Shown one piece after another: positions 4,702 to 23,316 of a stretch of DNA of 24,000 nucleotides (position 1 is its first letter; every line of letters starts with the position of its first letter). A program made the position numbers and the translations under genes. Source of the DNA: an uncultured Prolixibacteraceae bacterium (GTDB taxonomy: Bacteria > Bacteroidota > Bacteroidia > Bacteroidales > Prolixibacteraceae); assembly GCA_913063265.1 (NCBI GenBank), contig CAJXZG010000080.1:1742-25741 (forward strand). Reading direction: 5' to 3'. Below the pieces are notes generated by a model. It was given only the letters and a program-made list of their open reading frames with translations, ran no database searches and was not told where the DNA came from.

Positions 4702-6033
4702 TTAAGCTACAAAACCCCTGTTCATTTGCGGAAGATAAGTATCGATACGAATATTATCGGCTTTTAACATGTGCATTAAATTGTACAAACCAAAAAAAGT
4801 ACGGTTGACATAGATAAAATGTCTCGACCCGCGATTGCCGTTCATATTTCTTAATTCAGTATTTTTTGAATACTGTGCTCCCAACTCGCTAATCCGACTA
4901 AAAAAAGTGCTATTTGAAAAATCAAAAGTTTCCTGTTGAAAGGGTTGTGTAAATAAACTCAACAATTGAAAAAACATTGTGGTAAAAAACTCTATTTCCT
5001 CACGACTATCATCACTCCGAAAAATTTCCAGTTCGTATAATTTAGCCTTAAAAAGCCTTGGGTTATTGATGTTTTCCTTTAACGCTAGTTCAAAATATGG
5101 CGTATAAAAATCATCAGGTATACTTTTTACACAGCCAAAATCCAGTACAATTAGTTCATTATTTTTAGAGACCAAAAAATTTCCGGGATGAGGATCGGCA
5201 TGAAACTTTTTTAAGCCATGAATCTGGTACATATAAAAATCCCACAACGCCTGTCCCAGTTTATTGGCAAGCTGCTTGTCGTTGTTGTTTGCCGCAAAAA
5301 CCGACAAATGTGTACCTTCCATCCAATCCATGGTAATTATCCTTTCTGATGACAGTTCTCTGTAATAGTCCGGAAAGCGCAGATTTTCAATATCCTTGCA
5401 GGCTTCTATCATTTTTAAACTTTCCTCTACTTCAAGAAGGTAATTGGTTTCATCGAGCAATTTTTCTTTCACCTCTTTAAAATAAACATCCGATCCTTTC
5501 CCTTTTATGTTAAACATTTTCATTGCCAGGGGTTTTACCATCGCCAAATCGCTGCTTATACTTTCCGACACCCCGGGATATTGCAATTTTACGGCCAACG
5601 TTTTACCGTCTTTTTTTGCCTGATGCACCTGGCCGATACTTGCTCCGTGTTTGGCTTTTAAATCAAACGAATCAAAAATTTCGCCCGGTGTTTTTCCAAA
5701 ATATTTCTGAAAGGATTTTATTACAAGTGGCGCCGACAGTGGAGGTACCGAAAACTGGGATAAAGAAAACTTATCTATATAAGCCTCAGGCATAATGTTT
5801 TTTTCCATACTCAACATTTGCGCTACTTTTAAAGCACTTCCCTTTAAATTTTTTAAGCCATCGTAAATATCGCTGGCATTCGCCTTGTCCAGTTTTTCCC
5901 TGGCTTCATATTCTGTTGTACTTAGCTTATGGCCGTAATATTTCAGATAATTGACACCTACTTTTGCGCCGGTCTGAAGAATTTTCGAAGCACGCTGAAT
6001 TTTCGTAATCGGAATGTTATCAATGGTTTCCAT
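4702..6033 (-). CDS. ABC1/UbiB/AarF-family atypical protein kinase
   Basis: 443-aa ORF. It shows the ABC1 signature region ...FSVPPLSAPLV...ASIGQVHQAKKDGKTLAVKLQYPGV... and the kinase-like catalytic segment FHADPHPGNFLV...LIVLDFG. Its start ATG overlaps the stop of the upstream TetR gene by 1 nt. Confidence 0.85.
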   Translation of the reverse strand: METIDNIPITKIQRASKILQTGAKVGVNYLKYYGHKLSTTEYEAREKLDKANASDIYDGLKNLKGSALKVAQMLSMEKNIMPEAYIDKFSLSQFSVPPLSAPLVIKSFQKYFGKTPGEIFDSFDLKAKHGASIGQVHQAKKDGKTLAVKLQYPGVSESISSDLAMVKPLAMKMFNIKGKGSDVYFKEVKEKLLDETNYLLEVEESLKMIEACKDIENLRFPDYYRELSSERIITMDWMEGTHLSVFAANNNDKQLANKLGQALWDFYMYQIHGLKKFHADPHPGNFLVSKNNELIVLDFGCVKSIPDDFYTPYFELALKENINNPRLFKAKLYELEIFRSDDSREEIEFFTTMFFQLLSLFTQPFQQETFDFSNSTFFSRISELGAQYSKNTELRNMNGNRGSRHFIYVNRTFFGLYNLMHMLKADNIRIDTYLPQMNRGFVA

Positions 6034-7910: not shown

Positions 7911-8065
7911 ACCACCCCGCCTCGTGTAAACTGAGGCACCCCTCCTGACAGGAGGGGAAATTTGTGCTACTCCACCAATATTTGAGATAAAAAAATAAAA
8001 TTCATTCCTCGAACAATTCTCCTCCTTACAGGAGGAGGGGACCGCATTTATAGCGGTGTGGTGGT
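7911..8065. repeat. Nested palindromic MITE-like element, isolated copy (~155 bp)
   Basis: It contains ACCACCCCGC, the hairpin gcctc/gaggc (a different sequence from the other copies in the same position), cccctcctgAcaggagggg, a divergent linker, ctcctccttacaggaggag and accgcatttatagcggt, ending in GTGGTGGT. Confidence 0.7.
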
Positions 8066-8480: not shown

Positions 8481-8758
8481 AATCGACCTAACATTTGATC
8501 CTCGTTGCAAACGAGGGCAGTGTGAGAAGCGGATTTTTTTTAAGCCCCTTTTTCTCTCTTGCTGAAAGAGGATTCACCGTGGAATTGTCGTTCGGCGACA
8601 GGGAATTATAGAGATTCCATTTTGAATAACTTCAATTCCGTAAAGAGAAATTCCAAAACTTAAAAACAAACTGCCTTTCTATACATGGATTATCGAGATA
8701 AATACCCAACTTTATGGCAATTTGTATATACACAAAAAAGTATGTACAATTGCTTACA

Positions 8759-10930
8759 ATGAGGCCTATTTTTGTAAATATACTTTTCATATTTCTTGTA
8801 GTTGCCACTATAAAAACTTCAGGTCAAACTTCAGTTCATCACTGGGAAACTATTTTGGTTCCTTTTAAAGTCTGGAACTATTTACCCGGTTCTGCTGAGA
8901 TTCCTGCTAACTGGAAAGATCCTGGTTATGAAGTTGGTAGCTGGTATACTGGAAGAGGTGGCATTGGTTATGGCGATGATGATGACCTGACAAAAATTGA
9001 TCCCACTATATCGGTTTTTATGAGGACGAATTTTAACGTTAAGGATATATCAGTTATTCAAGGCGCAATATTAAATGCCGATTACGATGATGCTTTCGTG
9101 GCCTATCTGAATGGAACAGAAATCGCACGTTCGAATATTGGAACACCGGGAATTCAACCCGCCTGGAACGAAGAAGCCCAAAGCAACCATGAAGCAGTGA
9201 TGTACGACGGAGTCAGCCCGGAAATCTTTCAAATAGAACCGGAAATGCTGGATAGTCTTTTGCAGGATGGCACAAATACGATAGCTTTTCAGGTTCACAA
9301 TCGGTCTGTTTCTTCTTCTGACCTTTCATCAAATTTTTATTTAACAGTCGGAATAACGGTCCCCGAAAAATATTACATCGATCCTATGGAATGGTTTTTT
9401 ATTCCTTTTGAATCGTCAAATCTTCCTCTGATGATGATAGAGACCAACGGTCAGACAATTACTACAAATGATCGGATTATCGCAGAAATGGGCTTGCTTG
9501 ACTATACCAATATTAGAGACAAAAATTATATATCGGATACTTTTAACATTTACGAAGGAAGAATATCCATTCGAATTCGCGGCTCATCTTCCCTCATGTT
9601 TCCAAAAAAGAATTACATTTTTGAAACTCAGGATGAAACAGGAGAAAACCGTAATGTGGAATTGTTGGGTTTACCTGATGAAAATGACTGGGTATTACAT
9701 GGTCCATATAGCGATAAATCCTTAATTCGCAATGTACTTTCTTATCATATTGCTGCAACCACCGGAAGATATGCACCACGTACCCGGTGGATAGAACTGT
9801 TTATAAACGGACAATATTTGGGGCTTTACGTTTTAACCGAAAAGATTAAACAGGATGACAACCGTGTGGATATTGCCAAGCTAAATCCGCAGGATACGAC
9901 TGGGGATCAACTCACCGGAGGGTATATACTGCAAATCGACAGAAACGACGATGACCAGCAAGATGAAGGTTGGTATTCAAAACACAAATCAAACGTTTTT
10001 TATACGTACTATGATCCCGGTTATGATGAGTTGGTTCCAAAACAGAAAGATTATATCCGTGGATTTATAAACGATTTTGAAGATATGGTAAAGTATGCCC
10101 AAAACAAATCGGAATATATTCACCTGGTTGATATACCTGCTTTTGTCGATTACTGGATACCAACTGAAATTTTTAACGATGTTGATGGTTATAAATTAAG
10201 TTTCCATATGTTTAAAGATTTGAATAGTAAAGGGGGTAAACTGCAACTCGGGCCGGTCTGGGATTTGAACCTTGCCTACGGAAATTTTGATTTTGCTGCT
10301 GATCCTCCTCTGCCAACCGGATGGACCTGGACCAAATGTGAAACACATAATATGCGCCCTTTCTGGGTTTATAACATCGTACAAACAGATACAGTGCAAA
10401 ATACTATTGCCTGCAGATGGCTGGAACTTAGAGCCGGGCCGCTTCACACCGATTCTTTACTGCAATTTATTGATGTAAATCTAAAACTTATTAAAGAAGC
10501 CAGAATAAGAAATTTCCAGCGCTGGCCTGTACTCGGGGTTTACGTTTGGCCAAATTATTATGTAGGTGCCGATTACGACGATGATGTAAATTATTTGATC
10601 AACTGGCTTGATACAAGATTAAACTGGATGGATGAAAATATGCTCGGTAATTGTAATGCGGTAAGTTCGAAACAGCTTGTATATCATTCTGAAAATGTAA
10701 AGGTGTTTCCTAATCCTTTCTCAGAAAGCATAACTTTCAGTTTTAGTGCTAATCTAAACGATGCCCAAATTGAAATATACAGCTCATCAGGAATGTTGCT
10801 AAAGCTGGAAAAAGTACAAAATAAACCTGTACACCACATGGTTTTGGACGACTTTAAACCGGGAATTTATATTTACAGAATTATTTCAAATGAAAGTGTA
10901 TTTAGCTTTGGAAAAATGGTAAAAAAGTAA
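8759..10930 (+). CDS. CotH-family protein (CotH kinase-like domain) with an N-terminal beta-sandwich region and a T9SS C-terminal sorting domain
   Basis: The ORF track gives 8714..10930. The ATG at 8759 gives a clean signal peptide (MRPIFVNILFIFLVVATIKTSGQ). The CotH-like core is LPLMMIETNGQ...GRISIRIRGSSS...KKNYIFE...LHGPYSDKSLIRN...LFINGQYLGLYVLTEKIK...GGYILQID. The C-terminus is a Por/T9SS tail. Confidence 0.85.
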   Translation: MRPIFVNILFIFLVVATIKTSGQTSVHHWETILVPFKVWNYLPGSAEIPANWKDPGYEVGSWYTGRGGIGYGDDDDLTKIDPTISVFMRTNFNVKDISVIQGAILNADYDDAFVAYLNGTEIARSNIGTPGIQPAWNEEAQSNHEAVMYDGVSPEIFQIEPEMLDSLLQDGTNTIAFQVHNRSVSSSDLSSNFYLTVGITVPEKYYIDPMEWFFIPFESSNLPLMMIETNGQTITTNDRIIAEMGLLDYTNIRDKNYISDTFNIYEGRISIRIRGSSSLMFPKKNYIFETQDETGENRNVELLGLPDENDWVLHGPYSDKSLIRNVLSYHIAATTGRYAPRTRWIELFINGQYLGLYVLTEKIKQDDNRVDIAKLNPQDTTGDQLTGGYILQIDRNDDDQQDEGWYSKHKSNVFYTYYDPGYDELVPKQKDYIRGFINDFEDMVKYAQNKSEYIHLVDIPAFVDYWIPTEIFNDVDGYKLSFHMFKDLNSKGGKLQLGPVWDLNLAYGNFDFAADPPLPTGWTWTKCETHNMRPFWVYNIVQTDTVQNTIACRWLELRAGPLHTDSLLQFIDVNLKLIKEARIRNFQRWPVLGVYVWPNYYVGADYDDDVNYLINWLDTRLNWMDENMLGNCNAVSSKQLVYHSENVKVFPNPFSESITFSFSANLNDAQIEIYSSSGMLLKLEKVQNKPVHHMVLDDFKPGIYIYRIISNESVFSFGKMVKK
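10697..10927 (+). other. T9SS (Por) C-terminal sorting domain of the CotH-family protein
   Basis: The last 77 aa read VKVFPNPFSESITFSF...IEIYSSSGMLL...PGIYIYRI...GKMVKK, which is the typical Por_Secre_tail pattern. Confidence 0.8.
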
Positions 10931-11735: not shown

Positions 11736-13994
11736 TTAAACTTTAACTTTCATTAATTCAGTTAATGACACTGCAAAAGGGAAACCCGATCCCCTGTCGC
11801 TTTTATAACCTTCCAACTTTGAAATATCCCATTTTTTGCCAAATAATTCTATTCGCTTTACCGGTTCAGTTTTATAAACCAAGTAATAATAATTATCATT
11901 GGATTTTGAAGGATATCCTTTGCTTATTAAGGTTTCCTTTGACCAAACCTGAGGACCGGAAACGGTAATTTCAAGAATTTTATCCGTGATTAGTTCACCT
12001 TCTGAATGAAGCAATATAAATTTTGCCCCTGCAACCTTGGGACTTACATTAATCGAACCTCTTCTTGACCCGGCTCTTGCATTGTACCAGCCCTTTTCAT
12101 AAATCCATTTCCATTTTTCTTTGTCGTAATATCCAATCAGGATATATGTTTCGTCTGGAATTAAAGATCTATCCGAATTTATCGTTTCAGGCAAACTCTG
12201 ATTAACAATATCAAACGGTTTATCTTTAAATGTCTCGTATGTTTTATATGCAATTTTTTCTTTCTGCGATGCCCTATTCAGCAGTTGCTGAACCACGTCC
12301 TTAATAAAAACTGTTAATGCTTCACTCCCTGTATTTGTTTTCGATGGTCTCACGGAAAAAGCACCTAATCCTGGGATCAGTTCGTGAAATCCATTCTTTT
12401 TGTAAGGATTTTCCGTTCCCGGATATAAAATATACGAACCTGCCGTTCTTCTGATTGCATCTTTGTAAGCATGCATTTTAAGCAGATCGATTCTTTTAAA
12501 AGTACCTTTCCGCTGATCCTCCTTCTCTTTTATAAAATCCTCATCTGTCCCTATAATTCCAGTAATGTTTTCAACTTTATATTTTGCATCGAAATGGATA
12601 TGTGTAATCAATTCTTCATTTTCTGCCACAGCCTGAGTGATGCCAAATGGCCAGATACTTAAAGTATAGTCGGGTCTCATTTTTTTTGTCCAGCTGCCAC
12701 CGTAAGGGTAGTTCATTTCCCCCTGAAATGTTTTATTATAGCTGAACTTTACATTTAATTTTCGAGTGCCTGCATCGAAAATTCCTTTAACCGCGGTATG
12801 TTTACCCTGTTTAAGCTGTAATCCTAAACCATCTGTTGTTTTCTTTATCAAATCCTTAACACTTCCTTGCTCAATGCTGAAGATTTCCGAAACAATATCA
12901 AGCAGTTTAAAAAACAGCCAGTATTCATACAAAACGGCAACATCCCGTTTATTTCCGCTGTAAACATCTTCTCCGCCATGCCAAACTAGTTTTGCAGCAA
13001 GGTCAAACATCAGCCACACCCTCAAAACCTCCCTGTAACCCTCTTTTCGTTGCAGAACAGGACTGTTCAGTGGCAAAGTTTTTGGTTTTGATATTTCTTT
13101 AAAAACCGAATGATTCAAATATTCCTGAATTTTATTTTCAAGTATGCCGGCTTCAGCGAAAATTCTGCCGTTGTTTTTTGTTTTCTCCTTTAAATCGCTG
13201 AAAAAGGATTGAAACGAAATCAATACAAATTTTATAAACCGGTTTTCGGGGGTATCAACCGTTTCTGTTTTGTTGTTAATACGAATTTTTTCAGGTACCG
13301 ATTTCATCCTTTTAAATAGTTGATGATTTTTCGTCAATTCAATTCGGTTGGTTGCACCAGCAAGTTGTCTGATGGAAGAATTGGTAAATTTTCTTACATT
13401 CCTGATATCTTTTTTTTCTTCATTATCTTTCCATCTTGTAACTGGAGCGGAAATAATTTTATGCAACGAATCGTTAAATTCATCAGACTCCAGAATTGAT
13501 TTTACAAACGCAAAACGTTGATAAAGTGTCTGAGCATCAAAATTAAAATTGACCTCAAAATACTGTGATACTGGGGAACTATGCTGCAATAGTAAATCCG
13601 TACATTTTTCCGTAATTTCTTCGAGCATTAGGCGGTAATCTTCCCTGTAGGTGATTTTCTTTGACTGCACTTCGAGTTTTAACTCTCCGCATTTATTTTG
13701 TTCTGAGTCCAGAACATTGATAACAAGGGTGCCTACATATATGTTAGGAGTGATCCTCCCTGAAAATTTATGCACCTTCGATTGGCTGATTATATCTTTG
13801 TATCCATGAAGGCTATATCCTTTAGGTAATTTATATTCATAAGAACAACCCTCGATTATTTGAAAAGGTGATTCACCATTTTCTTCAGCATCATTTAAAT
13901 TTAACAAGATCTCATCGTTACTCTCCCCAAAAAGTATAAGGAAAATAGTACCATTTGATAATTTGATTGGTATGGATAATTTGTTTTCAGCCAT
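11736..13994 (-). CDS. McrC-like PD-(D/E)xK nuclease subunit (DUF2357/DUF524-type; LlaJI.R2-like) with an extra C-terminal domain
   Basis: 752-aa ORF with an ATG start, beginning 5 nt after the stop of the McrB-like gene. The nuclease core reads KMRPDYTL (about aa 440) ... HIHFDAKYK (D469-A-K471) ... LLKMHAYKDAIRR. The family assignment is from memory of McrC-like partners of McrB-type GTPases, not from a search. About 140 C-terminal residues (aa 612-752) lie beyond the nuclease core. Confidence 0.75.
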   Translation of the reverse strand: MAENKLSIPIKLSNGTIFLILFGESNDEILLNLNDAEENGESPFQIIEGCSYEYKLPKGYSLHGYKDIISQSKVHKFSGRITPNIYVGTLVINVLDSEQNKCGELKLEVQSKKITYREDYRLMLEEITEKCTDLLLQHSSPVSQYFEVNFNFDAQTLYQRFAFVKSILESDEFNDSLHKIISAPVTRWKDNEEKKDIRNVRKFTNSSIRQLAGATNRIELTKNHQLFKRMKSVPEKIRINNKTETVDTPENRFIKFVLISFQSFFSDLKEKTKNNGRIFAEAGILENKIQEYLNHSVFKEISKPKTLPLNSPVLQRKEGYREVLRVWLMFDLAAKLVWHGGEDVYSGNKRDVAVLYEYWLFFKLLDIVSEIFSIEQGSVKDLIKKTTDGLGLQLKQGKHTAVKGIFDAGTRKLNVKFSYNKTFQGEMNYPYGGSWTKKMRPDYTLSIWPFGITQAVAENEELITHIHFDAKYKVENITGIIGTDEDFIKEKEDQRKGTFKRIDLLKMHAYKDAIRRTAGSYILYPGTENPYKKNGFHELIPGLGAFSVRPSKTNTGSEALTVFIKDVVQQLLNRASQKEKIAYKTYETFKDKPFDIVNQSLPETINSDRSLIPDETYILIGYYDKEKWKWIYEKGWYNARAGSRRGSINVSPKVAGAKFILLHSEGELITDKILEITVSGPQVWSKETLISKGYPSKSNDNYYYLVYKTEPVKRIELFGKKWDISKLEGYKSDRGSGFPFAVSLTELMKVKV

Positions 13995-13999
13995 TTCAA

Positions 14000-16318
14000 T
14001 TATGCTTCAGCATAACTTGTAAAACCATTGGATAACATGTTGTTATACATACGAAGAATTTTCTCCAGAGAAACTGGGTATTTTATTTTAGGATTGCCTT
14101 CGAAATCTATCTCATTTTTTGAAGTTAAAAATTCATCAAATTTCTGATCATTCTGCAAGCAAAGACTTCCCAGTGTTTTTAACACAGATTCCAACTTTCT
14201 TTTTGAACCATGCACTTTTGGCAATAATTTTTGCATAATAGCCCAGTCAATTATTTTGTTAATATCTCTGTTTGTTTCAAGATGTTTTACGATCGCAGTA
14301 AAACGATGAATTTCGGTTGCACTTCGATATCCAAACTCAGCCCCTGTCTTTTTGAGTTCCACAAAAAATTCATTAAGAGTATCGTTAATTATTTTTAAAT
14401 CAGCTACATTATCAAGTTTTATTTCACTATTTTTTGCAAGCAGAACAAACGAATCTGCCAAATTTTTCCCTTGACCAACAATACCATTTATATCTAGATG
14501 TTTTGTATTACTGAGGAAATCCTTCATTTCATCTTTTGTTACTCGGAACTCAATTACATTGGCACGATCAAGCACCTTTGGGCTGAACATATAAGTTGTT
14601 TCATCGATGTTAACGGTTCCAATAATAAACAAATTTGGTGGCAACTTAATTTTTTCAGGAACATCATCCTGCCAATCTTCCATTTCAGCATGAAGTGGTA
14701 TGTCCTCTCCTGATTCCATAGCACTGAGGAAGTCGGCGAAATAACGTTCCACATGACTTAAATTCATTTCATCAAGAATAAGAAAATATGGTTTGTTTTG
14801 ATTTTCAGGTTTTCCTGCCTCTAGTATTATTTGCAATACTCCATTTTCTGGCTTAACATATTTGCCTTTCTCCAAAGCATTGGGGTAACCCAACAAAGGC
14901 TCTCTATTTGTCCAATCTGCGCCAACAGGAACAATACAAATTTGAGTATTTTTAAAATTAGGCGATTTTGTCTCTTTTTTAATAAGATGAAAAGCACTTG
15001 CTTTTAAATGAGACTCAAAAGAATTTAACTGAGGAGAGTATTTTGTTATTTCACCCACCACTTGTCTGATTTCACGTGGAGATATTTCTGTGCTGAATTT
15101 TTTATCAACTATAACATTAATCCATTCATATATTAATTCGTAAGGCAAATTTACTTTTGTTCCAGTCTCTAATTGTGTTAAAGTTACGGAAAGGGAATCA
15201 AGTGAAGTAATTTTATATTTAGCTCTATCCGCTTCGATTACTTCATTTAAGTCAAAAGTTTTTTGAGTGGATTTGATTTGGGCTGGTTCAGAAATCCATT
15301 TTGCGAAGATCTGAGCTAACTTTGTTTTACCACTCCCACTCAAACCGGTAAAAATTATAAATCTTTTTGTACATAAAGAAGATATTAATCTAATTGGCAG
15401 TTCTGGTTGTCCTTTAAATCCCGCAGATTCAATATCTTTAAGAAAATTATTGCTAATAAATGAAAGTTCTCTTGTATTTTTATTATAACTTTTGAAGTTC
15501 CCTAAATAATAATTTGTCCACTCTGAAATATCTTCAGTTTTCAGAAAGGAATAAGGTTTATTGATTTTATTTTTCAACAAATCGATATTAATTGATATTA
15601 ATTCTCTAAAACCAGATTTATTAGCTTGCTGCCCTATTATTAGGCCCCCCCAACCCACAAAAGAAAACCAAGGGGCAATTCTGGCAGAAACTTGTTCACT
15701 ATGAACTGGTTTTCCAAGCAGAAAATCAAGATTGTTGTTATTTGCAGAATAGTCAGAATTGATTTTATTTCTTGTATCTTTTATTTTGTTAATTGCAGAA
15801 TCAAGTTCATCCATTTTCATTATTCGAAGAACAACCCGATTCATTTCCTCATAATGTAGTTTAAAATCACATTCCAACATTATTCTCCAAATACATATAC
15901 TTGGTAAAACATCACAATCTACAGGCAATTCTGATAATTGATCTTCCGTCGGATTATATAACTGATATCTTGATAAAATATCTATTGCAATCTCACATGC
16001 TTCTTTTAGTCTTTTCTCTTTCTCTTTTTCAATGGAATTAGGCAACTCAGAAAAAAACTGACCAAGTCGTGATAATGCAATTTGATCCCCATCTTTATAT
16101 ATAAGGCCATAGTTTTGATAAAGTTTTCTGTATGTTCTGTAACGCTGGTCTTTTATTCCGAGGTGAGCAATATTTTCTTGTGACTCATAATCACTCCAAC
16201 CTATTTTCTCCAATTTTAAAAAAGCCTCAAGATGTTTTCGATATTCAGGTGTGATTTCAATACTTAATTCAGGGAATTGGGTAGTATCCCTAATTCCGCT
16301 TGGCCAATGGTCTAACAT
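14000..16318 (-). CDS. McrB-like AAA+ GTPase/ATPase restriction subunit (AAA_5 type; LlaJI.R1-like) with a large N-terminal extension
   Basis: 772-aa ORF. Walker A is GLSGSGKT (aa 325-332). The Walker B region is YFLILDEMNLSHVERYFADFLSAMES (D516/E517). The downstream segment FIIGTVNIDETTYMFSPKVLDRANVIEF matches the McrB-family pattern. About 320 aa precede the P-loop. Confidence 0.85.
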   Translation of the reverse strand: MLDHWPSGIRDTTQFPELSIEITPEYRKHLEAFLKLEKIGWSDYESQENIAHLGIKDQRYRTYRKLYQNYGLIYKDGDQIALSRLGQFFSELPNSIEKEKEKRLKEACEIAIDILSRYQLYNPTEDQLSELPVDCDVLPSICIWRIMLECDFKLHYEEMNRVVLRIMKMDELDSAINKIKDTRNKINSDYSANNNNLDFLLGKPVHSEQVSARIAPWFSFVGWGGLIIGQQANKSGFRELISINIDLLKNKINKPYSFLKTEDISEWTNYYLGNFKSYNKNTRELSFISNNFLKDIESAGFKGQPELPIRLISSLCTKRFIIFTGLSGSGKTKLAQIFAKWISEPAQIKSTQKTFDLNEVIEADRAKYKITSLDSLSVTLTQLETGTKVNLPYELIYEWINVIVDKKFSTEISPREIRQVVGEITKYSPQLNSFESHLKASAFHLIKKETKSPNFKNTQICIVPVGADWTNREPLLGYPNALEKGKYVKPENGVLQIILEAGKPENQNKPYFLILDEMNLSHVERYFADFLSAMESGEDIPLHAEMEDWQDDVPEKIKLPPNLFIIGTVNIDETTYMFSPKVLDRANVIEFRVTKDEMKDFLSNTKHLDINGIVGQGKNLADSFVLLAKNSEIKLDNVADLKIINDTLNEFFVELKKTGAEFGYRSATEIHRFTAIVKHLETNRDINKIIDWAIMQKLLPKVHGSKRKLESVLKTLGSLCLQNDQKFDEFLTSKNEIDFEGNPKIKYPVSLEKILRMYNNMLSNGFTSYAEA

Positions 16319-16338
16319 AATCCTTTTCTGTTAAAATA

Positions 16339-17370
16339 TTATAAATATTTTTTTAAATTTTCAGCAACTGATTTGGCTAAAAGAGGAGGTACTGCATTGC
16401 CAATTTGTTTAGCTATTTGCACTTTAGAACCATAAAAAACAAATGTGTCTGGAAAACTTTGCAATCGTGCTCCTTCCCTTAAAGTAATTGTTCTGTTTAA
16501 TTCCGGATGTCCAAATCTTCCTCTGGAAAAACTATCAAATCTAGCAGTAATTGTAGGACTCGGTGAATGCCAGGCCATTCTTCCATATACATCTAAATGT
16601 CGATGATTATTATTTTTATTGTGACATGTTAATTGTAAATGTTCAGGCAGACTCTCTCTTCCTTGTCCTTCTTTAATTGAACTTATTCGATCAATATTAA
16701 TTTTTGATAGTTTGTCTGCAATATGATTAGGGATACTTCCTATTTCAACATGCTGCAAATCTTTTATTGCCTCAAATACTGTCTTAAAGCCAAGGTTTGT
16801 TTCTTTAATCTTTGAAAAGTCCACTTCACAATTTGGTTGTCCTTTTATTATTTTTTGTCCAATGATGAATACTCTTTTCCTATTTTGTGGAACACCAAAA
16901 CTTATCGCGTTAAGTTTCTCAATTCTAATTCGGTAATTATTTTTTTCACAATTAGTGATTATTTCTTCAATGTAAGGTTTTCCTCTTTTAGAAAGCAATC
17001 CTCCAACATTCTCCATAATAAAGAATTTAGGTTTTATTTCTAAAACAAGCCTTATAAAATCTAAAACTAATGTATTCCTATCATCATGATCACTACCTCT
17101 CCTTTGCACACTAAATCCCTGGCACGGCGGACCTCCTGCAATTACCGTAATGTCATCTAAATTTATGGAAGTCAAATTTTCTATTAATTTCCTATTAACT
17201 TTTTTTGCATCTAATACATGACCATGAGAACCAATATTATTATTATATGTTTCGATACATGCAGGATCATTATCAAATGCAAATACAGGAGTAAATCCAG
17301 CCATAGAAAAACCATGAGATAATCCTCCGGCACCACAAAAACAATCAATTAGTTTATAATCTTTAACCAT
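16339..17370 (-). CDS. dcm: DNA (cytosine-5)-methyltransferase
   Basis: 343 aa. It has motif I LIDCFCGAGGLSHGF, motif IV GGPPCQGFS, motif VI FIMENVGGL, motif VIII QNRKRVFIIG, motif IX TLREGARLQSFPD and motif X GNAVPPLL. Confidence 0.95.
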   Translation of the reverse strand: MVKDYKLIDCFCGAGGLSHGFSMAGFTPVFAFDNDPACIETYNNNIGSHGHVLDAKKVNRKLIENLTSINLDDITVIAGGPPCQGFSVQRRGSDHDDRNTLVLDFIRLVLEIKPKFFIMENVGGLLSKRGKPYIEEIITNCEKNNYRIRIEKLNAISFGVPQNRKRVFIIGQKIIKGQPNCEVDFSKIKETNLGFKTVFEAIKDLQHVEIGSIPNHIADKLSKINIDRISSIKEGQGRESLPEHLQLTCHNKNNNHRHLDVYGRMAWHSPSPTITARFDSFSRGRFGHPELNRTITLREGARLQSFPDTFVFYGSKVQIAKQIGNAVPPLLAKSVAENLKKYL

Positions 17371-17423
17371 TTACCTCATTATCATTTATAAATAATTTTT
17401 CAAACTTAATATATATATTATTA

Positions 17424-18596
17424 TTATTTGGTCATTTTATTATTGTTTTCCGCAATTAACGCTAGTACATGCACTGCCAAACTTAAAGAAAAGATTGGAG
17501 GGACTGCATTGCCAATTTGTTTAAATTTATCATCAAATGGACCTTCAAATATGAAATTTTCGGGAAATCCTTGCAAAAGAGCTGCCTCTCTAACAGATAA
17601 TCCCCTGTTTAATTCAGGATGAGTAAATCTTCCACAAGAGGGTGTTCTGCACCTTGCAGTAATTGTGACAGAAGGTTTATCCCAAAAAAGTCTGCCATAA
17701 ACATCAGAAAAGCCATTTACATTGTCTAAACATTTTGGTCCAACTCCTTTTGGTCGAAATCCCCCATCCTTTGGCACTTTTGCCAATATTTCAATTGTAT
17801 TTTTTTTATGTTTCGAAGTCTGATGCATTGAATCTGTTTCTGATATTTCTCCTGATTCTATAATATCCAAGTGTCCTATTGCATCTCTAACTGTCCTAAA
17901 ATCTTTACTTTCAGCTATAATATTTGGAGGTATTGATGGTTTAAATTTTTTAGAAGCTAAAACAACGGTTCGGAATCGCTTTTGTGGTACCCCATAATGT
18001 GCCATGTTTACCACTTCTGTATTAATTACATAATTTTCTTCCTCCAAAATTTCTTTAAATTCATCAAAATGTGAGATATGTTTTTTTGATAATAAATCTG
18101 GAACATTTTCCATTATTACGAATTCCGGTTTTAAATGTGCCACAATTCTACCGAAAGCTCCCACTAAAGAGTTTCTTGTATCTTCTTTTTTTTGACGGTC
18201 CTTCTTTCGATGTGCGGAAAAACCTTGACATGGAGCACAACCAATAAGAATTAATGGATTTTGTCTGCCAGCTCTTCTTTCTTCTATAATTTTATCCAAA
18301 ATTTTGTTAGAAATATTACCCAAATCATAGTCTATTGGATGACTACCAAAATTTGAATAAAATGTATCGTTAGCATGCTTATCAATATCAAAAGCTGCAA
18401 TATGTCTATAAACCTTTTTCTTTTCACCTAATTTATAAAAACCGTATGACATTCCTCCACAGCCAGAAAAAAAATCGATTACATCATATTGTTTTGAAGG
18501 TAATTTAACTTTAATCTGTTCCCATTCTCTTTGTTTTAATAATTTTTCCAATAAATCATTACCAGCTTTTAAAAAAGCATCATTATCAAATTTCAT
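17424..18596 (-). CDS. dcm: DNA (cytosine-5)-methyltransferase
   Basis: 390 aa. It has motif I VIDFFSGCGGMSYGF, motif IV GCAPCQGFS, motif VI VIMENVPDL, motif VIII PQKRFRTVV, motif IX SVREAALLQGFPE and motif X GNAVPPIF. Confidence 0.95.
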   Translation of the reverse strand: MKFDNDAFLKAGNDLLEKLLKQREWEQIKVKLPSKQYDVIDFFSGCGGMSYGFYKLGEKKKVYRHIAAFDIDKHANDTFYSNFGSHPIDYDLGNISNKILDKIIEERRAGRQNPLILIGCAPCQGFSAHRKKDRQKKEDTRNSLVGAFGRIVAHLKPEFVIMENVPDLLSKKHISHFDEFKEILEEENYVINTEVVNMAHYGVPQKRFRTVVLASKKFKPSIPPNIIAESKDFRTVRDAIGHLDIIESGEISETDSMHQTSKHKKNTIEILAKVPKDGGFRPKGVGPKCLDNVNGFSDVYGRLFWDKPSVTITARCRTPSCGRFTHPELNRGLSVREAALLQGFPENFIFEGPFDDKFKQIGNAVPPIFSLSLAVHVLALIAENNNKMTK

Positions 18597-18828: not shown

Positions 18829-19239
18829 TTAATTCTGTATTAATAATAATTCCTTCCATATTCGCTCTTTTTCTTGTTTTAATTCACAAGTCCAGATTTT
18901 TATCACTTTCCAGCCCAAAACATTTAATTCCACTTCATTTTCGCGGTCGCGTTTTTGGGTGTCCTTAATTTTATTAAGCCACCATTCAGTCCGGGTTTTG
19001 GGTACTACAAAATATTTGCATCCTTTATGTCCGTGCCAGAAACAGCCGTTTACAAAAATTACGGTTTTGTATTTGGGTAAAACAATATCGGGTTTTCCGG
19101 GAAGGGTTTTTACATTTAAACGATAGCGGAATCCATGGGCAAATAAAAACTTTCGCACCAGCATTTCGGGTTGTGTATCTTTCCCCTTAATGCGGCTCAT
19201 ATTATACGAGCGTGTTATTTTGTTATGTACATCGGCCAT
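18829..19239 (-). CDS. vsr: Very short patch repair endonuclease (T:G mismatch-specific)
   Basis: Homology starts at the ATG at 19239: MADVHNKITRSYNMSRIKGKDTQPEMLVRKFLFAHGFRYRLN...PGKPDIVLPKYKTVIFVNGCFWHGH...TRTEWWLNKI..NQKRD. The E. coli Vsr N-terminus is MADVHDKATRSKNMRAI. The longer track ORF (to 19368) adds 43 codons that read through repeat and hairpin DNA. Confidence 0.9.
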   Translation of the reverse strand: MADVHNKITRSYNMSRIKGKDTQPEMLVRKFLFAHGFRYRLNVKTLPGKPDIVLPKYKTVIFVNGCFWHGHKGCKYFVVPKTRTEWWLNKIKDTQKRDRENEVELNVLGWKVIKIWTCELKQEKERIWKELLLIQN

Positions 19240-19341
19240 AGGATTAAAGGTAAAAGTAAAAAGGCAAAAGGCAAAAGATGGCAGTTCACCCTTTTCTGCC
19301 CATCGGCAGACAGGGACTACGCCCGGGATGACCTCGCTGGT

Positions 19342-19381
19342 GCGCGATTGTATCCAAATAAACCACACGATACAATCGTGC
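19342..19381. terminator. Stem-loop between the 167-aa ORF and vsr (possible terminator or repeat-element hairpin)
   Basis: gcgcgattgtatc (19342-19354) pairs with gatacaatcgtgc (19369-19381), giving 12/13 matches and a 14-nt loop. It lies 27 nt downstream of the stop at 19408 on the minus strand. There is no adjacent U-tract, so a terminator role is uncertain. Confidence 0.3.
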
Positions 19382-19407
19382 AGGAACGGTGATTTCTAAT
19401 GGTAGTT

Positions 19408-19911
19408 CTACCAGTCGTAGTTATACTCGTCAATCCACTTTTTAAAACCACTCCCATCTGCTGTTTTGTAAGTTTTCAGTCTTTGCTCAAACCAATCTTT
19501 GTCTTTGCAAACTTGTTTTATCTTTTCGAATTGCGTAGTAGTAATAAACTCATTTTGGCATATAAATTCAAAAAAATCGAAAAGTGCTGAAAGAATTTCT
19601 TTCATTTCTTTAAAATTGGGAGACCAGCTTTTTCGTATATACCAATTCCCAAGAAATGTTCTTATGGTAATATCATTTGATGCTAAAACCGACAGTTCAT
19701 CATTGTAAACAAAAAAATAATTCATCATAAAATACGAACTATATCCAAGTTGCCTTTCAACCAATTCATTTTTATAGTTTTTACTGCTTAAGTATTTTTT
19801 GAACTCATCGAAAACAATTTTAGATTTCTCCCATTGCCTGTTATTTTCTTCTTCAGAATTATCTTCTTTAATACATTCGAAGTGTTTACTTGTCAATTTC
19901 ATCTTAACCAT
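19408..19911 (-). CDS. Hypothetical cytoplasmic protein (167 aa), no recognisable motif
   Basis: The start is ATG at 19911, with an alternative ATG at 19902. The ORF has no better-supported competing ORF; antisense track ORFs (19399..19590, 19499..19708, 19799..19981) read as non-coding. There is no signal peptide or TM segment. The protein is rich in aromatic residues, K and E. It begins 66 nt downstream of the 535-aa gene on the same strand. Confidence 0.6.
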   Translation of the reverse strand: MVKMKLTSKHFECIKEDNSEEENNRQWEKSKIVFDEFKKYLSSKNYKNELVERQLGYSSYFMMNYFFVYNDELSVLASNDITIRTFLGNWYIRKSWSPNFKEMKEILSALFDFFEFICQNEFITTTQFEKIKQVCKDKDWFEQRLKTYKTADGSGFKKWIDEYNYDW

Positions 19912-19977
19912 ATTTTATATTTGCCTGCTAATCGGCATTATTTTACAGATTCGGGATTATTGTATACATCCACGGCA

Positions 19978-21585
19978 TTAATCTTTCCCTGTAAGTGTAA
20001 TTGAAGGTTTCGTAAAATAACTGTTTCGTTTCCAAAACCGAAGTAAAAAATCGATATCTTTTAAAAACAGTTTCCCGGAGGTACTTTTAAAAAATGGCAA
20101 TTTGTTTTTACAGTGTTTAATACAATATTCCGCAAGCTCTCTGGAAGTTTCTTCCGAAATAAATAAATCGAGTATTTCTCTTCCATCAACTTCAGGATTG
20201 TACCAGCTGTTATTTTTAAACGGCAGTGTTTCGTTAAAATTTAACGCAATTTCAACACCGCTATTCTGATTAAAAAATACGAGTCCGGTTTCGCTTTTTT
20301 CAGTAAAATCTATAGTGGAATTGTTTTCGGTATTTAACAAACCATCATTACGCGTTCTCCTTCTTGCATCTTCAATTTCGGTCTGGCTAAGGTTTAACGA
20401 TGCATTAAAATATTCGGTATAATTTTTAACGAATTGTTCTATTTCGTCAGACGGCATAAATGCTATTTGAGACCCCTTGTTATAGGAGAGAAAAGCATTG
20501 AGCTGTTGGTTTAGGGTTTCTTTTACATCCTTGCTTTCGTGGTCGAGAAAGTTTACCTGCCTGCGGCTTTCCAACGAGTTCTTTTCGTTTAAAACCAAAT
20601 CGGCATTAAATTCGTTTTGGAAATATACTCCCGAAAACCACCACTCGTTTTGCCACTTTACAATTCCGATATACATGATTGTATCAACAGCAGTTAAGAG
20701 ATGAGCATGATCGAACGACTTTTTGCTTAAATTAAATTTTTTCCCCGAAGCAATGTGTTCTATAAAAATATCTTCATCATTTTGTCCTTTATACAAAAAG
20801 AATCCTTTTATTCTTTGCGACATGTTTAACAAATCGTTAGCGAGCGGATGATTTTCTCCAAGAATCTGCGCAGCCCACTCTTTACCCTTTAGGCTTAACA
20901 ACCTGGTATTATAGGTATGCAACAACGAGTCTCTGGTTTCCTGTAAATAGTGCATCAGGTTTTCGTCGTCGTCTTCCTCCATTATTTCAAGTTCCAGTTC
21001 GGCAAGCTCCAAAGCCGAATCGGGATAAAAAAGCCATGTTTTAAAAAGAATGGTATCGATACCGGTACGCACTTTGTAAAAATCGGATTCGCCTTCGGGT
21101 ATCGAATAAAACGATTTAAGCTGTTCGTTTTCGGGTGCAAATTCATATTCATCATCGAGAACCGATATTACCCTGTCGGCAATTTTAGCGATAAAAACGT
21201 TGTGAGGGTCGATGTACTTTTCTTCTTGAATAACATTTAAAAAATACCAGATTAAAAATGCCACATCCTGCACATTTATTTCCTTGTCGAAATATTCTTT
21301 GGTATTGTAAAAGGGTAGTTTTTTGTTGTAAAGTTTTTGATGAATTGAGCTAAAAGAATTCCAAATGTTGGTTCCGGAAATAATATCTTCGAAATACGAT
21401 GCTAAAAAACAGGCTAATAATTCAATTTCTTTTTTATCGATATATGTTAACAAAATAAATGAATCGGGAGAATACAGAATCTTGAAAATTTTGTTGGAAA
21501 TGGTAAGGTAGTAGTTGTCGGTTGGAGTTTGTTTATCGTAAGGTTTTAAATCCAGCCACTGTTGAATATATATTCTGTTTTTCAT
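19978..21585 (-). CDS. Hypothetical cytoplasmic protein (535 aa); the N-terminus resembles Bacteroidota DUF3843-type proteins (tentative, from memory)
   Basis: Long clean ORF with an ATG start. The N-terminus is MKNRIYIQQWLDLKPYDKQTPTDNYYLTISNKI. There is an acidic block EEDDDENL. I saw no P-loop, no clear nuclease motif and no TM segment. Confidence 0.7.
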   Translation of the reverse strand: MKNRIYIQQWLDLKPYDKQTPTDNYYLTISNKIFKILYSPDSFILLTYIDKKEIELLACFLASYFEDIISGTNIWNSFSSIHQKLYNKKLPFYNTKEYFDKEINVQDVAFLIWYFLNVIQEEKYIDPHNVFIAKIADRVISVLDDEYEFAPENEQLKSFYSIPEGESDFYKVRTGIDTILFKTWLFYPDSALELAELELEIMEEDDDENLMHYLQETRDSLLHTYNTRLLSLKGKEWAAQILGENHPLANDLLNMSQRIKGFFLYKGQNDEDIFIEHIASGKKFNLSKKSFDHAHLLTAVDTIMYIGIVKWQNEWWFSGVYFQNEFNADLVLNEKNSLESRRQVNFLDHESKDVKETLNQQLNAFLSYNKGSQIAFMPSDEIEQFVKNYTEYFNASLNLSQTEIEDARRRTRNDGLLNTENNSTIDFTEKSETGLVFFNQNSGVEIALNFNETLPFKNNSWYNPEVDGREILDLFISEETSRELAEYCIKHCKNKLPFFKSTSGKLFLKDIDFLLRFWKRNSYFTKPSITLTGKD

Positions 21586-21681: not shown

Positions 21682-21795
21682 TTAACCAAAACTTCCGCGC
21701 CAATATTTAGTTGCAAGGATTTCTAATTTGGGCCTGGTGTTTTTCCCTTCAATTTGGATCATATTGTACGGGCGGGTTGCTTTGTTATGTACATT
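21682..21795 (-). pseudogene. vsr: Degraded N-terminal remnant of a second vsr gene
   Basis: The minus-strand frame reads NVHNKATRPYNMIQIEGKNTRPKLEILATKYWRGSFG*. The intact Vsr reads DVHNKITRSYNMSRIKGKDTQPEMLVRKFLFAHGF. About 49 of the first 66 aligned nucleotides are identical by hand count. There is no in-frame start codon (AAG AAT GTA where ATG GCC GAT GTA is expected), and a stop follows after about 38 codons. Confidence 0.6.
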
Positions 21796-21960
21796 CTTAA
21801 TATTAGAACAAATAGAATTAAACAAATCAGTTTAACATTACAAAAATTGTAATCCTGTATTTTGAATAACAATTGGGTTAACTTTGTACATTAAGATTAA
21901 TGATTCTATGAAATTATACTACATGAGGTTATTAGTATTTAATACGAACTCTCCCTCATT

Positions 21961-22018
21961 CCCTCTCTTCGCGAAGAGAGGGACGATTGTTTCGCAGACA
22001 CAATCAGGGTGAGTTAAT
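21961..22018 (+). repeat. Palindrome + hairpin + GGTGAG-tail element (same architecture as one arm of the MITE-like family, different sequence)
   Basis: It has a perfect 22-bp palindrome ccctctcttcgcgaagagaggg (21961-21982), the hairpin gattgt-ttcgcagac-acaatc (21985-22005) and the tail agggtgagttaat. Confidence 0.6.
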
Positions 22019-22118: not shown

Positions 22119-22856
22119 ATGGTTGATTATCGGCAACAAATTCTTCCGGATGTGCTGCACTGGCAAACGCTAATGCTTAAAAAGCCAACGCTGGTGAACA
22201 GGTGGTCGAAGGGTGTGCAAGTAAAAATTAATTCGTGGATACCCGAAAAAGTACACCGGGCCATTACGGTTACCCTTAAACAAATGATTCGCGGGGTTTT
22301 GTTCGGGGCCAATTATACTGCTGCCAAACCTTTAAACGGCCTGTCGTTGGAAGCACAGGAAGCCGCCATTAACGAACGGATTAAATTTTACAAATCTACG
22401 GCTGCCGTAGAAGGAGGAATAACAGGGGCAGGAGGTATATTGCTGGGCTTTGCCGACTTCCCGATTTTACTGGCGCTTAAATTAAAAATGCTGTTTGATA
22501 TGGCTTCGATGTATGGTTTTAACATTAAAGATTATAAGGAAAGGGTGTACATCCTTCATATTTTCGAACTGGCATTTTCAAGTCATGTCCACCGGCGAAA
22601 AGTCTACCTCAATATGGTTGACTGGGAACAAAAAAGTAAAGATCTTCCGGAAGATATCCACCAGTTCGACTGGCGAAATTTTCAGCAGGAATACCGCGAC
22701 TACCTCGACCTGGCAAAAATGGCGCAAATGATACCCCTTGTAGGCGCACCTGTTGGTTTTGTGGTCAACTCGCGCCTGGTAAAAAAACTTGGAAAAACGG
22801 CAATGAATGCGTATCGGATGAGGATTTTGGAGAAGGAGAAGGAGGATGAGAGTTGA
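22119..22856 (+). CDS. EcsC-family protein
   Basis: 245 aa with an ATG start. The pattern is ...KINSWIPEKVHRAITVTLKQMIRGVLFG... followed by a glycine-rich segment AAVEGGITGAGGILLGFADFPILLALKLKMLFDMASMYGF, as remembered for EcsC (PF12787-type) proteins. Confidence 0.7.
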   Translation: MVDYRQQILPDVLHWQTLMLKKPTLVNRWSKGVQVKINSWIPEKVHRAITVTLKQMIRGVLFGANYTAAKPLNGLSLEAQEAAINERIKFYKSTAAVEGGITGAGGILLGFADFPILLALKLKMLFDMASMYGFNIKDYKERVYILHIFELAFSSHVHRRKVYLNMVDWEQKSKDLPEDIHQFDWRNFQQEYRDYLDLAKMAQMIPLVGAPVGFVVNSRLVKKLGKTAMNAYRMRILEKEKEDES

Positions 22857-22962
22857 GAGTTTAAAGTTTAAGGTTGAAAGTTTAAAGTTTAAAGTTCAAG
22901 GTTTAAAGTTGAAAGTTTAAGGTTCAAGGTTTAAAGTTGAAAGTTTAAGGTTGAAAGTTTAA
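22851..22962 (+). repeat. Tandem heptanucleotide array, 16 copies of RGTTNAA
   Basis: agttgag agtttaa agtttaa ggttgaa agtttaa agtttaa agttcaa ggtttaa agttgaa agtttaa ggttcaa ggtttaa agttgaa agtttaa ggttgaa agtttaa. The first unit contains the ecsC-family stop codon (22854-22856). Confidence 0.9.
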
Positions 22963-23316
22963 AGGAGATGAGATAGGTTTCAGAAACTACTCCGGAATTT
23001 CACATTAGGGTTGTAAAATCCTTTCACTTTAGAACTATTATTACACTTGTCTTTTGTGTCAGATGTTTTAGTATAATTATTTTTATTTCGTCCGGGATAA
23101 CAAGCATGCGTTGAACAACTTTCGACGCCGGACGAGTTCTTCCTCTATCATTTACCCGGCGTTACACACCGGGTTATTAATGTTTAATCCTTTCAGGATT
23201 ATTGAGATAGACACTGAAGGTGTCAAATAAAAACATAAGTACATAAACGGCAAAGAATGTGGCTTATCGGGAGCAATTTTTGTAAGTTTGAAATTGAATC
23301 TTCTAAATCAAATCGT

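Follow-up and report, generated by a model that had tools for sequence, protein, structure and literature searches.

In a 24,000-nucleotide (nt) stretch of DNA from an uncultured Prolixibacteraceae bacterium (contig CAJXZG010000080.1; hereafter the window), a gene encoding a 535-amino-acid (aa) protein of the DUF3843 family is followed on the minus strand by a small gene encoding a protein of about 165 aa. Both lie directly upstream of vsr, the gene for a very-short-patch-repair endonuclease, and of a four-gene restriction-modification (R-M) operon. A first-pass annotation of this DNA had proposed that the two genes form an independent defence or anti-defence module that landed in a defence hotspot. 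Our analysis retains the hotspot and discards the module. The locus is probably a composite, in which two unrelated and independently distributed passenger genes of R-M operons have come to lie side by side in a variable hotspot next to an EcsC gene.

Independent distribution of the two families

The arrangement in the window invites the idea of a functional pair. The DUF3843-family gene (19978..21585, minus strand, ATG start) and the small gene (19408..19911, minus strand, ATG start, longest open reading frame (ORF) 167 aa) are separated by 66 nt (19912-19977), as had been described. According to homologue alignments and an independent gene call, the small gene probably starts at its second methionine, 19902, three codons later, giving 164 aa; the two genes are thus 66-75 nt apart. 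Both are real genes and not chance ORFs, since each has hundreds of homologues. A terminator scan predicted no terminator between them, while a terminator-like hairpin with a T-run follows the small-gene stop codon directly (19341..19383, minus strand; hairpin 19383-19363; inverted repeat I15; RNA fold -22.5 kcal/mol, z -2.1). This hairpin sits between the DUF3843-small unit and vsr, and the pair may therefore be one transcription unit in the window. Moreover, the pair lies within an R-M island, and both genes are kept within a few kilobases of each other in the window and at two related loci, L002 and L004.

Nevertheless, DUF3843 and the small gene are not a conserved pair. The small gene was found at none of the 82 DUF3843 loci, 63 of which have at least 700 nt of downstream sequence. 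In a sample of one genome per species, with neighbours judged within the retrieved flanks, DUF3843 sequence is present at three of the 46 small-gene loci (L002, L004 and L007), all in the bacterial family of the window, and is absent from the 43 others. What L002 and L004 retain of it is a fragment, frameshifted or with an internal deletion; their small gene is intact, at 78-79% identity. The first-pass annotation had itself named a failure of the two genes to co-occur and stay adjacent across genomes as evidence against its proposal, and this is the outcome that we obtained.

In L002 and L004 the gene immediately preceding the small gene encodes a UvrD-like helicase; this cluster-8 protein had been considered as a divergent DUF3843 and was rejected on that identification. 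The closest homologues of each gene also have other neighbours. The nearest relative of the window DUF3843 gene (L047, 82% identity) is followed by an unrelated 329-aa ORF, and in the nearest relatives of the small gene (L001, 83%; L003, 79%) DUF3843 is missing and the small gene is directly fused to a piece of vsr. Clustering of neighbours revealed no conserved partner for either family. Because the families do not co-occur and their closest homologues have different neighbours, the reading of the pair as a two-gene module fails. A relationship between the two proteins was likewise rejected (hhalign probability 0.1%). As a separate observation, the fusion in L001 (L001:3874-4512, P0001) is publicly annotated as a 212-aa 'hypothetical protein' with a Vsr Pfam match; in fact it is a chimera that joins vsr codons 1-~44 in frame to the small gene.

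The DUF3843 protein and the small protein

The 535-aa protein is a full-length member of PF12954 (DUF3843), with residues 5-517 aligned to positions 2-407 of the 410-position model (E 1.6e-59; 202.5 bits, cut-off 25). The resemblance to DUF3843 had been noted earlier for the N-terminus, together with the caveat that the family is widespread in Bacteroidota and may not be defence-related. The family and the caveat both stand, most contexts of the family being varied, and the restriction to the N-terminus falls with the extent of the match. The protein is acidic (isoelectric point (pI) 4.9) and soluble, and its homologues, at 55-82% identity, number in the hundreds in Bacteroidota and Ignavibacteria. 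The AlphaFold2 (AF2) model (predicted local distance difference test (pLDDT) 86) displays an N-terminal helical domain, a central beta-barrel (~259-324) and an alpha/beta C-terminal part. For the DUF3843 protein, Foldseek searches of PDB and BFVD returned local matches to the barrel only, of the oligonucleotide/oligosaccharide-binding (OB) or cold-shock-like type, and the family profile gave no meaningful match to PDB chain sequences.

The canonical 423-aa DUF3843 of Parabacteroides distasonis overlaps the window protein in the N-terminal domain alone (aa 3-256). The two share this helical domain (hhalign probability 99.8%) and the motifs WLxLxPY, YFEDxISxxxIWxxFxxxHxxLYxKxLPFY and APEN, whereas in the 535-545-aa subfamily the C-terminal half, comprising the beta-barrel and the alpha/beta part, cannot be aligned with the canonical member. 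The window copy also differs in being, as it appears, a xenologous extra copy inside an R-M island. Apart from DUF3843, the protein has no Pfam or NCBIfam match, and no catalytic, NTPase or nuclease motif could be recognised in it. Literature searches on DUF3843 found, in the library searched, no paper mentioning the family.

Two nuclease identities were considered for the DUF3843 protein and rejected. PrrC and RloC combine an N-terminal ABC-type NTPase domain with a C-terminal nuclease motif of the HEPN type (R-x4-6-H). The DUF3843 protein lacks the N-terminal NTPase domain of these anticodon nucleases. With respect to a HEPN RNase, the pair R218-x4-H223 is conserved in the 535-aa subfamily, but the corresponding residues are S and A in the canonical member, and the Foldseek results contained no HEPN fold. 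We propose, with moderate to low confidence and on the basis of the model, that the barrel would be the part of the DUF3843 protein that binds nucleic acid.

The small protein belongs to an undescribed and unnamed family of ~165 aa, which it founds. It has 133 close homologues of 164-165 aa, and no Pfam family at E <= 0.01 and no NCBIfam family matched it. The conserved motifs of the family are FECIKEDNSEEE (N-terminal), FLGNWYIRK (central) and WIxEYNYDW, which forms the C-terminal tail (alignment A1). Like the large protein, it has no hydrophobic segment compatible with a transmembrane helix or a signal peptide (maximum 19-residue Kyte-Doolittle scores 1.16 for DUF3843 and 1.07 for the small protein), and no catalytic motif could be recognised in it, in agreement with the earlier reading of both proteins.

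Its AF2 model is all helical (pLDDT 89). Tyrosine recombinases hold DNA with a four-helix SAM-like or core-binding domain, and the only consistent structural matches of the small protein with low root-mean-square deviation (rmsd) are such N-terminal domains: 3nrw, IntI (2a3v) and lambda Int (1z1b) were found by Foldseek at probabilities of 0.82-0.94, with E-values of about 1. The superpositions gave a template-modelling score of 0.68 and an rmsd of 3.0 for 3nrw, a probability of 0.94 for IntI 2a3v, and an rmsd of 2.6-3.0 over 86-104 columns overall. Beyond this predicted SAM-like domain, the small protein has two to three extra C-terminal helices. A search of PDB chain sequences with the small-family profile gave no meaningful match.

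An exhaustive search with the same profile yielded 457 representative clusters. Many of the remote relatives are multidomain proteins in which Phage_int_SAM_1, _4 or _5 matches exactly the region covered by the profile, several above the gathering score (P0257, profile 76-227 and Phage_int_SAM_1 94-178, 25.7 bits against 22.3; P0271, profile 392-532 and Phage_int_SAM_1 398-483, 26.2 bits; P0355, profile 9-117 and Phage_int_SAM_4 14-100, 34.4 bits against 27). On the grounds of this transitive homology and of the fold, we place the small protein in the SAM-like/core-binding superfamily, as a predicted member that is not a recombinase. No Phage_integrase match, and hence no tyrosine-recombinase catalytic domain (R-K-H-R-H/W-Y), was found in the small protein or in 20 multidomain relatives; one source annotates a homologue as XerD. 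The relatives carry SEC-C motifs, TPR/HEAT repeats, DUF6930 or DUF7309 instead of the recombinase domain; literature searches on DUF6930, DUF7309 and DUF7108 found no papers. The small protein further differs from a recombinase core-binding domain in its extra C-terminal helices, its conserved acidic N-terminal and aromatic C-terminal tails, and its near-neutral charge. The predicted core-binding-type bundle and the conserved tails suggest, with moderate to low confidence, that it would bind DNA or a partner protein.

Restriction-modification loci as a recurrent setting

Most DUF3843 copies are solitary and stand in varied contexts, among them NQR and SusC/D genes, gltB, a polyketide synthase cluster and an insertion sequence (IS)/toxin-antitoxin (TA) island. 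A subset is embedded in one lineage of Type I R-M operons, with HsdM subunits that are 74-83% identical. In L093 and L107 the order is hsdM, ORF6N/KilA-N/RhuM, hsdS, Bro-N, DUF3843 and a bona fide hsdR. In L077 the DUF3843 gene is followed by a bona fide hsdR and occupies the hsdS-hsdR slot, and in L087 and L095 it lies directly downstream of hsdM-hsdS. Remnants of hsd genes adjoin it in L092, L097, L095 and L078. The family is found in the position that defines a Type I passenger, on the same strand between hsd genes, in L093, L107, L077, L087 and L095; the window copies are not, and flank vsr and a LlaJI-type system. In its own right, this Bacteroidota Type I lineage (L093:1354-11993, L107:702-10359) carries up to four embedded passenger genes, on one strand throughout.

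Among 70 non-redundant DUF3843 loci, a Type I gene or remnant lies within 2 kb in 7 (10%) and within 5 kb in 10 (14%), more than ten times a background of ~1%, which is a rough estimate from general knowledge of R-M density and not a matched control. R-M-type adjacency rises to 14 of 70 (20%) when typical passenger genes are counted. The embedded copies are spread over at least three clades of the family tree and are tightly spaced from their same-strand Type I neighbours (10-81 nt).

As a bare ORF, the small gene has moved across phyla of both bacteria and archaea. At about 50% identity, the gene occurs in Bacteroidota, Ignavibacteriae, Actinomycetota, Acidobacteriota, Bacillota, Cloacimonadota and Atribacteria, as well as in Methanosarcinales, Methanophagales, Thermoplasmata and Thermococci; Asgard archaea have copies that are more distantly related. 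Nucleotide similarity among its loci is bounded by the ATG and the stop codon, which led us to reject the idea that the gene is framed by an element like the attC of integrons or by a conserved terminal element. The hairpin after the gene was likewise rejected as attC-like, as it lacks GTTRRRY ends, and a 33-codon ORF overlapping the gene in L138 and L139 is not the vsr fragment for which it had been considered.

The neighbourhoods of the small gene are heterogeneous, with housekeeping genes in a Thermoplasmata archaeon and at Draconibacterium-type loci, and Cas6 genes elsewhere. In two unrelated bacteria (L131 and L132) the gene lies between hsdM and hsdS of Type I operons, beside Fic and HEPN/MNT genes, and in the window and L004 it stands directly upstream of a vsr plus C5-methyltransferase (MTase) system. 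With a limited R-M query set, an R-M-type gene was found within 5 kb at 6 of 46 small-gene loci. PADLOC matches among the neighbours comprise MADS, Cas6, GajB-like and DISARM components.

We propose that both proteins would be non-enzymatic passengers of R-M loci that bind nucleic acid or a partner, an assignment of moderate to low confidence. They would be comparable to the Bro-N, KilA-N, ORF6N and RhuM genes beside which DUF3843 stands in its hsdS-hsdR position, and the small gene shares its hsdM-hsdS position with Fic and HEPN/MNT genes. Unlike position, sequence and structure relate neither protein to PrrC or to any other of these Type I passengers (PrrC; RhuM, KilA-N, Bro-N, ORF6N, Fic, HEPN/MNT), only a minority of members of each family is embedded, and in the window the two genes stand beside a Type II LlaJI-like system. 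The co-transcription of the two genes in the window would come about only through chance adjacency. Either gene alone may have a conflict-related role, because each family, taken separately, adjoins R-M genes far above rough chance.

The strongest competitor of the passenger reading is that there is no link to defence. DUF3843 would then be an ordinary Bacteroidota protein and the small protein a minor DNA-binding regulator, gathered in a flexible, repeat-rich region. The mostly non-defence contexts, the lack of any conserved neighbour, the 55-60% conservation of DUF3843 across orders, as expected for a cellular function, and the absence of both genes from phage and plasmid collections are all consistent with this view. 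However, the excess of Type I adjacency in several clades with short same-strand spacing, the embedding of the small gene in Type I operons of unrelated bacteria, and its transfer across domains at ~50% identity, which is unusual for a housekeeping regulator, make this explanation unlikely, if a serious one.

A second alternative concerns DUF3843 alone and leaves the small gene unrelated. The hsdS-hsdR slot, which DUF3843 occupies in at least five independent loci, is the position of prrC in the EcoprrI locus. DUF3843 could accordingly be a PrrC-like second-line sensor or effector, latent in the R-M complex and released when phage anti-restriction disables restriction. Its conservation in a single Type I lineage, its presence in IS/TA-rich and NERD/HNH islands, and the OB-like barrel of the model, of a nucleic-acid-binding type, fit such a role. 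On the other hand, the protein has no NTPase or nuclease motif, and the R-x4-H pair is not conserved in canonical DUF3843. About 80% of DUF3843 loci have no R-M genes nearby, the canonical gut-Bacteroidales DUF3843 stands among housekeeping genes, and the window copy adjoins a Type II-like and not a Type I system. A PrrC-like guard role is the most attractive specific model for DUF3843, without motif support, and we regard it as improbable.

As to the two-gene system with which the first-pass annotation began, we searched collections of defence systems and mobile elements. PADLOC-DB v2 contains no family matching DUF3843 or the small protein at E <= 0.01, PHROGs has no match for either, and the IMG/VR contigs hold no relatives of the two families. 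The plasmid collection has no match to the small gene, and its DUF3843 matches are confined to three non-mobilizable large replicons, of which only one matches over most of its length. Carriage of either gene by phages or plasmids, as for anti-defence genes of the Ocr/ArdA type, was thus not found in any meaningful way, which argues against an origin as anti-defence cargo of mobile elements. Given these absences, the lack of a recognisable effector domain and the distributions described above, a self-contained two-gene defence or counter-defence system is very improbable.

Repeat-bracketed cargo between vsr and EcsC

The R-M operon downstream of the pair was correctly recognised at the first reading. 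The four genes (11736..18596, minus strand; PADLOC PDC-M26A) lie outside the cassette and encode two 5-methylcytosine (m5C) MTases (17424-18596 and 16339-17370, minus strand; Pfam DNA_methylase twice), a 772-aa McrB-like GTPase subunit (14000-16318, minus strand; weak McrB GTPase matches among PDB sequences) and a 752-aa subunit with DUF2357 and PD-(D/E)XK domains (11736-13994, minus strand; Pfam PDDEXK_7). LlaJI consists of two m5C MTases, a McrB-like GTPase subunit and a PD-(D/E)XK subunit encoded by four co-oriented genes (PMC1459862). The window operon has the same four co-oriented gene types and, judged by gene content, is probably a LlaJI-type system; it differs in its linkage to vsr and two cargo genes. 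The intact vsr gene (18829..19239, minus strand) encodes 136 aa, also according to the independent gene call (Pfam Vsr 8e-34, TIGR00632 8e-41).

On either side of the cargo stands a copy of one module, which comprises a T-rich leader of heptads and vsr codons 1-~37; the two copies have diverged. The downstream copy is the intact vsr with its T-rich leader (19240..19285, minus strand), part of a ~150-nt 'leader + vsr 5'' module that recurs as a repeat in related genomes. The upstream copy is the degraded vsr remnant noted at the first reading, which is real. It lies upstream of the DUF3843 gene (21682..21795, minus strand) and contains Vsr codons ~3-37 with a 6-codon insertion and a stop at its end (sequence reading; tblastn of Vsr aa 3-31 at 55%). 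As a direct repeat (D1), the two copies align over 58 nt (21737-21794 and 19175-19232) at 79% identity with a spacing of 2562 nt, and over ~110 nt at the protein level. The junction between the remnant and the DUF3843 gene, including the intergenic sequence, is also present in L047 and hence predates the window. Among 140 loci, vsr 5' fragments with breakpoints at codons ~28-44 occur in L001-L004, L008 and L047 and nowhere else.

Several observations in related genomes concern such repeats. In L008:13797-17303, from an uncultured Prolixibacteraceae metagenome-assembled genome (MAG), a ~180-336-nt module of T-rich heptad leader and vsr codons 1-~37 is present as five direct repeats that are 67-93% identical. 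Three modules in tandem are followed by a 2.3-kb insert (a Metallophos gene and a 191-aa ORF) and by two more copies. No intact vsr was found within 20 kb of this array, which looks like an amplified landing pad or a repeat family. In an Aerophobetes MAG (L026:5221-8554), an internally deleted copy of a 250-aa gene is followed by three small ORFs plus the small gene and by the intact 250-aa gene; this layout of fragment, cargo and intact gene is that of the window with another gene. A palindromic repeat resembling repetitive extragenic palindromic (REP) elements (GCATCCCTTTTCCC...AGGGATGC) lies between gene cassettes in three related genomes (L002:3346-3451 and 5751-5884; L004:6413-6465, 7998-8062 and 10583-10646; L007:5591-5633 and 10584-10665). 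It was considered as the cassette boundary in the window and rejected, being absent there.

On its other side, the variable region is flanked by a conserved EcsC-family gene (22119..22856, plus strand; Pfam EcsC 4.7e-85). The orthologue in L142 (8586-9398) has 78% aa and 79% nt identity, and on the side of EcsC that holds the vsr/R-M island in the window it carries NERD, HNH_2 and HATPase_c_3 genes. Since L142 has different defence-like genes there, the EcsC 5' flank is a variable hotspot, which upholds the claim that the cargo landed in a defence hotspot. L142 shares only EcsC with the window, and has its own DUF3843 gene, 58% identical, on the opposite side of EcsC. This arrangement argues that the DUF3843 gene of the window would be an extra, horizontally acquired copy. 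The EcsC protein also matches the PADLOC candidate family PDC-S29 (E 3e-10), and EcsC itself may be a member or a marker of a defence hotspot.

We suppose that the segment would have arrived by recombination at a vsr 5' module, through either Campbell-type integration or insertion with long target duplication. The latter has been described at R-M loci (Furuta, Abe and Kobayashi 2010, PMC2853133). As in those insertions, the window cargo lies at an R-M locus, contains no transposase or integrase, and stands between direct repeats of more than 30 bp in which a portion of the target is duplicated, in this case the vsr 5' end. It differs in three respects: the published repeats are near-identical (e.g. 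44/46 and 417/423), whereas those of the window are 79% identical; the published inserts contain R and M genes, whereas the cargo consists of two non-R-M genes; and L008, a related genome, has the repeated module in amplified form. The arrangement is also consistent with Campbell-type integration of a circle carrying a partial vsr.

The modules admit a further explanation, in which the small protein is the DNA-recognition factor of a recombination platform, vsr 5' modules being the landing pads and a host recombinase providing catalysis. In the Prolixibacteraceae-type loci (the window, L001-L004 and L008), modules do lie less than 4 kb from the small gene, genes are interspersed among the five copies of L008, the breakpoints are concentrated at vsr codons ~28-44, and the predicted fold of the small protein is the one that recombinases use at core sites. 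Outside this lineage, however, the small gene has neither vsr modules nor a common repeat, no recombinase gene is linked to it, no conserved site flanks it, and the association may reflect common descent of one locus; we give this explanation very little weight. A broader proposal holds DUF3843 to be an unrecognised class of R-M-coupled, PrrC-like back-up sensors or effectors and, independently, the small protein to be a mobile DNA-recognition factor at R-M/vsr loci, possibly marking the modules as landing pads; it strikes us as a long shot, on a par with the guard role of DUF3843.

Several points weigh against the reading that we prefer, that of two independent R-M passengers in an EcsC-linked hotspot. 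Most loci of both families have no R-M or defence neighbour (e.g. L127, L128, L130, L134, L138 and the P. distasonis gltB locus), so that the passenger role rests on a minority of contexts, and the background with which Type I adjacency was compared is the rough one given above. The small protein itself has no Pfam SAM-like match, the E-values of its Foldseek matches are high, and its pI of 6.0 is atypical for a DNA-binding protein. With repeats that are only 79% identical, and with no empty-site genome found, the locus does not reveal by which mechanism the insertion took place. Finally, the two genes may be co-transcribed in the window.

Some further features of the window deserve mention. 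The R-M island region has a lower GC content (0.29-0.36) than the sequence on either side (0.37-0.43). Immediately upstream of the vsr start codon, Tandem Repeats Finder (TRF) detected 4.6 copies of the heptamer TGCCTTT (minus strand, 19246-19277); its copy number varies among related loci, and it could be a promoter or leader element or a slippage tract. A second tandem repeat (22851-22964), composed of eight 14-nt heptad-based units (AGTTGAAAGTTTAA), extends from just before the EcsC stop codon to ~110 nt past it, and heptads like AACTTTn are also found in the vsr leaders of L002 and L004. The divergent intergenic region between EcsC and the vsr remnant contains a perfect 10-bp stem with a 4-nt loop (TCCCTCTCTTCGCGAAGAGAGGGA, 21960-21983; folding z about -3.4, both strands). 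Adjoining the R-M island is a gene for a CotH-kinase-family protein with a C-terminal sorting domain of the type IX secretion system (T9SS; 8714-10930), unrelated to the two genes. Scans of the window for tRNA genes and Rfam families found no feature, there is no exact match to the Bacteroidota -7 promoter motif TAnnTTTG upstream of the DUF3843 gene or the small gene, and a sigma-70 promoter scan showed no excess over shuffled sequences.

To conclude, the two genes do not make up the defence system that had been proposed, and a misdirected cloning experiment is thereby spared. DUF3843, a family widespread in Bacteroidota, gains a reproducible association with the hsdS-hsdR slot of one lineage of Type I operons, which makes its function testable in the PrrC framework. 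The small gene reveals an unnamed and unusually conserved family, built on a predicted recombinase core-binding fold without the catalytic domain, that has moved between bacteria and archaea and is sometimes found inside R-M operons. Moreover, the amplified vsr 5' modules suggest how cargo accumulates ahead of m5C-type R-M systems.

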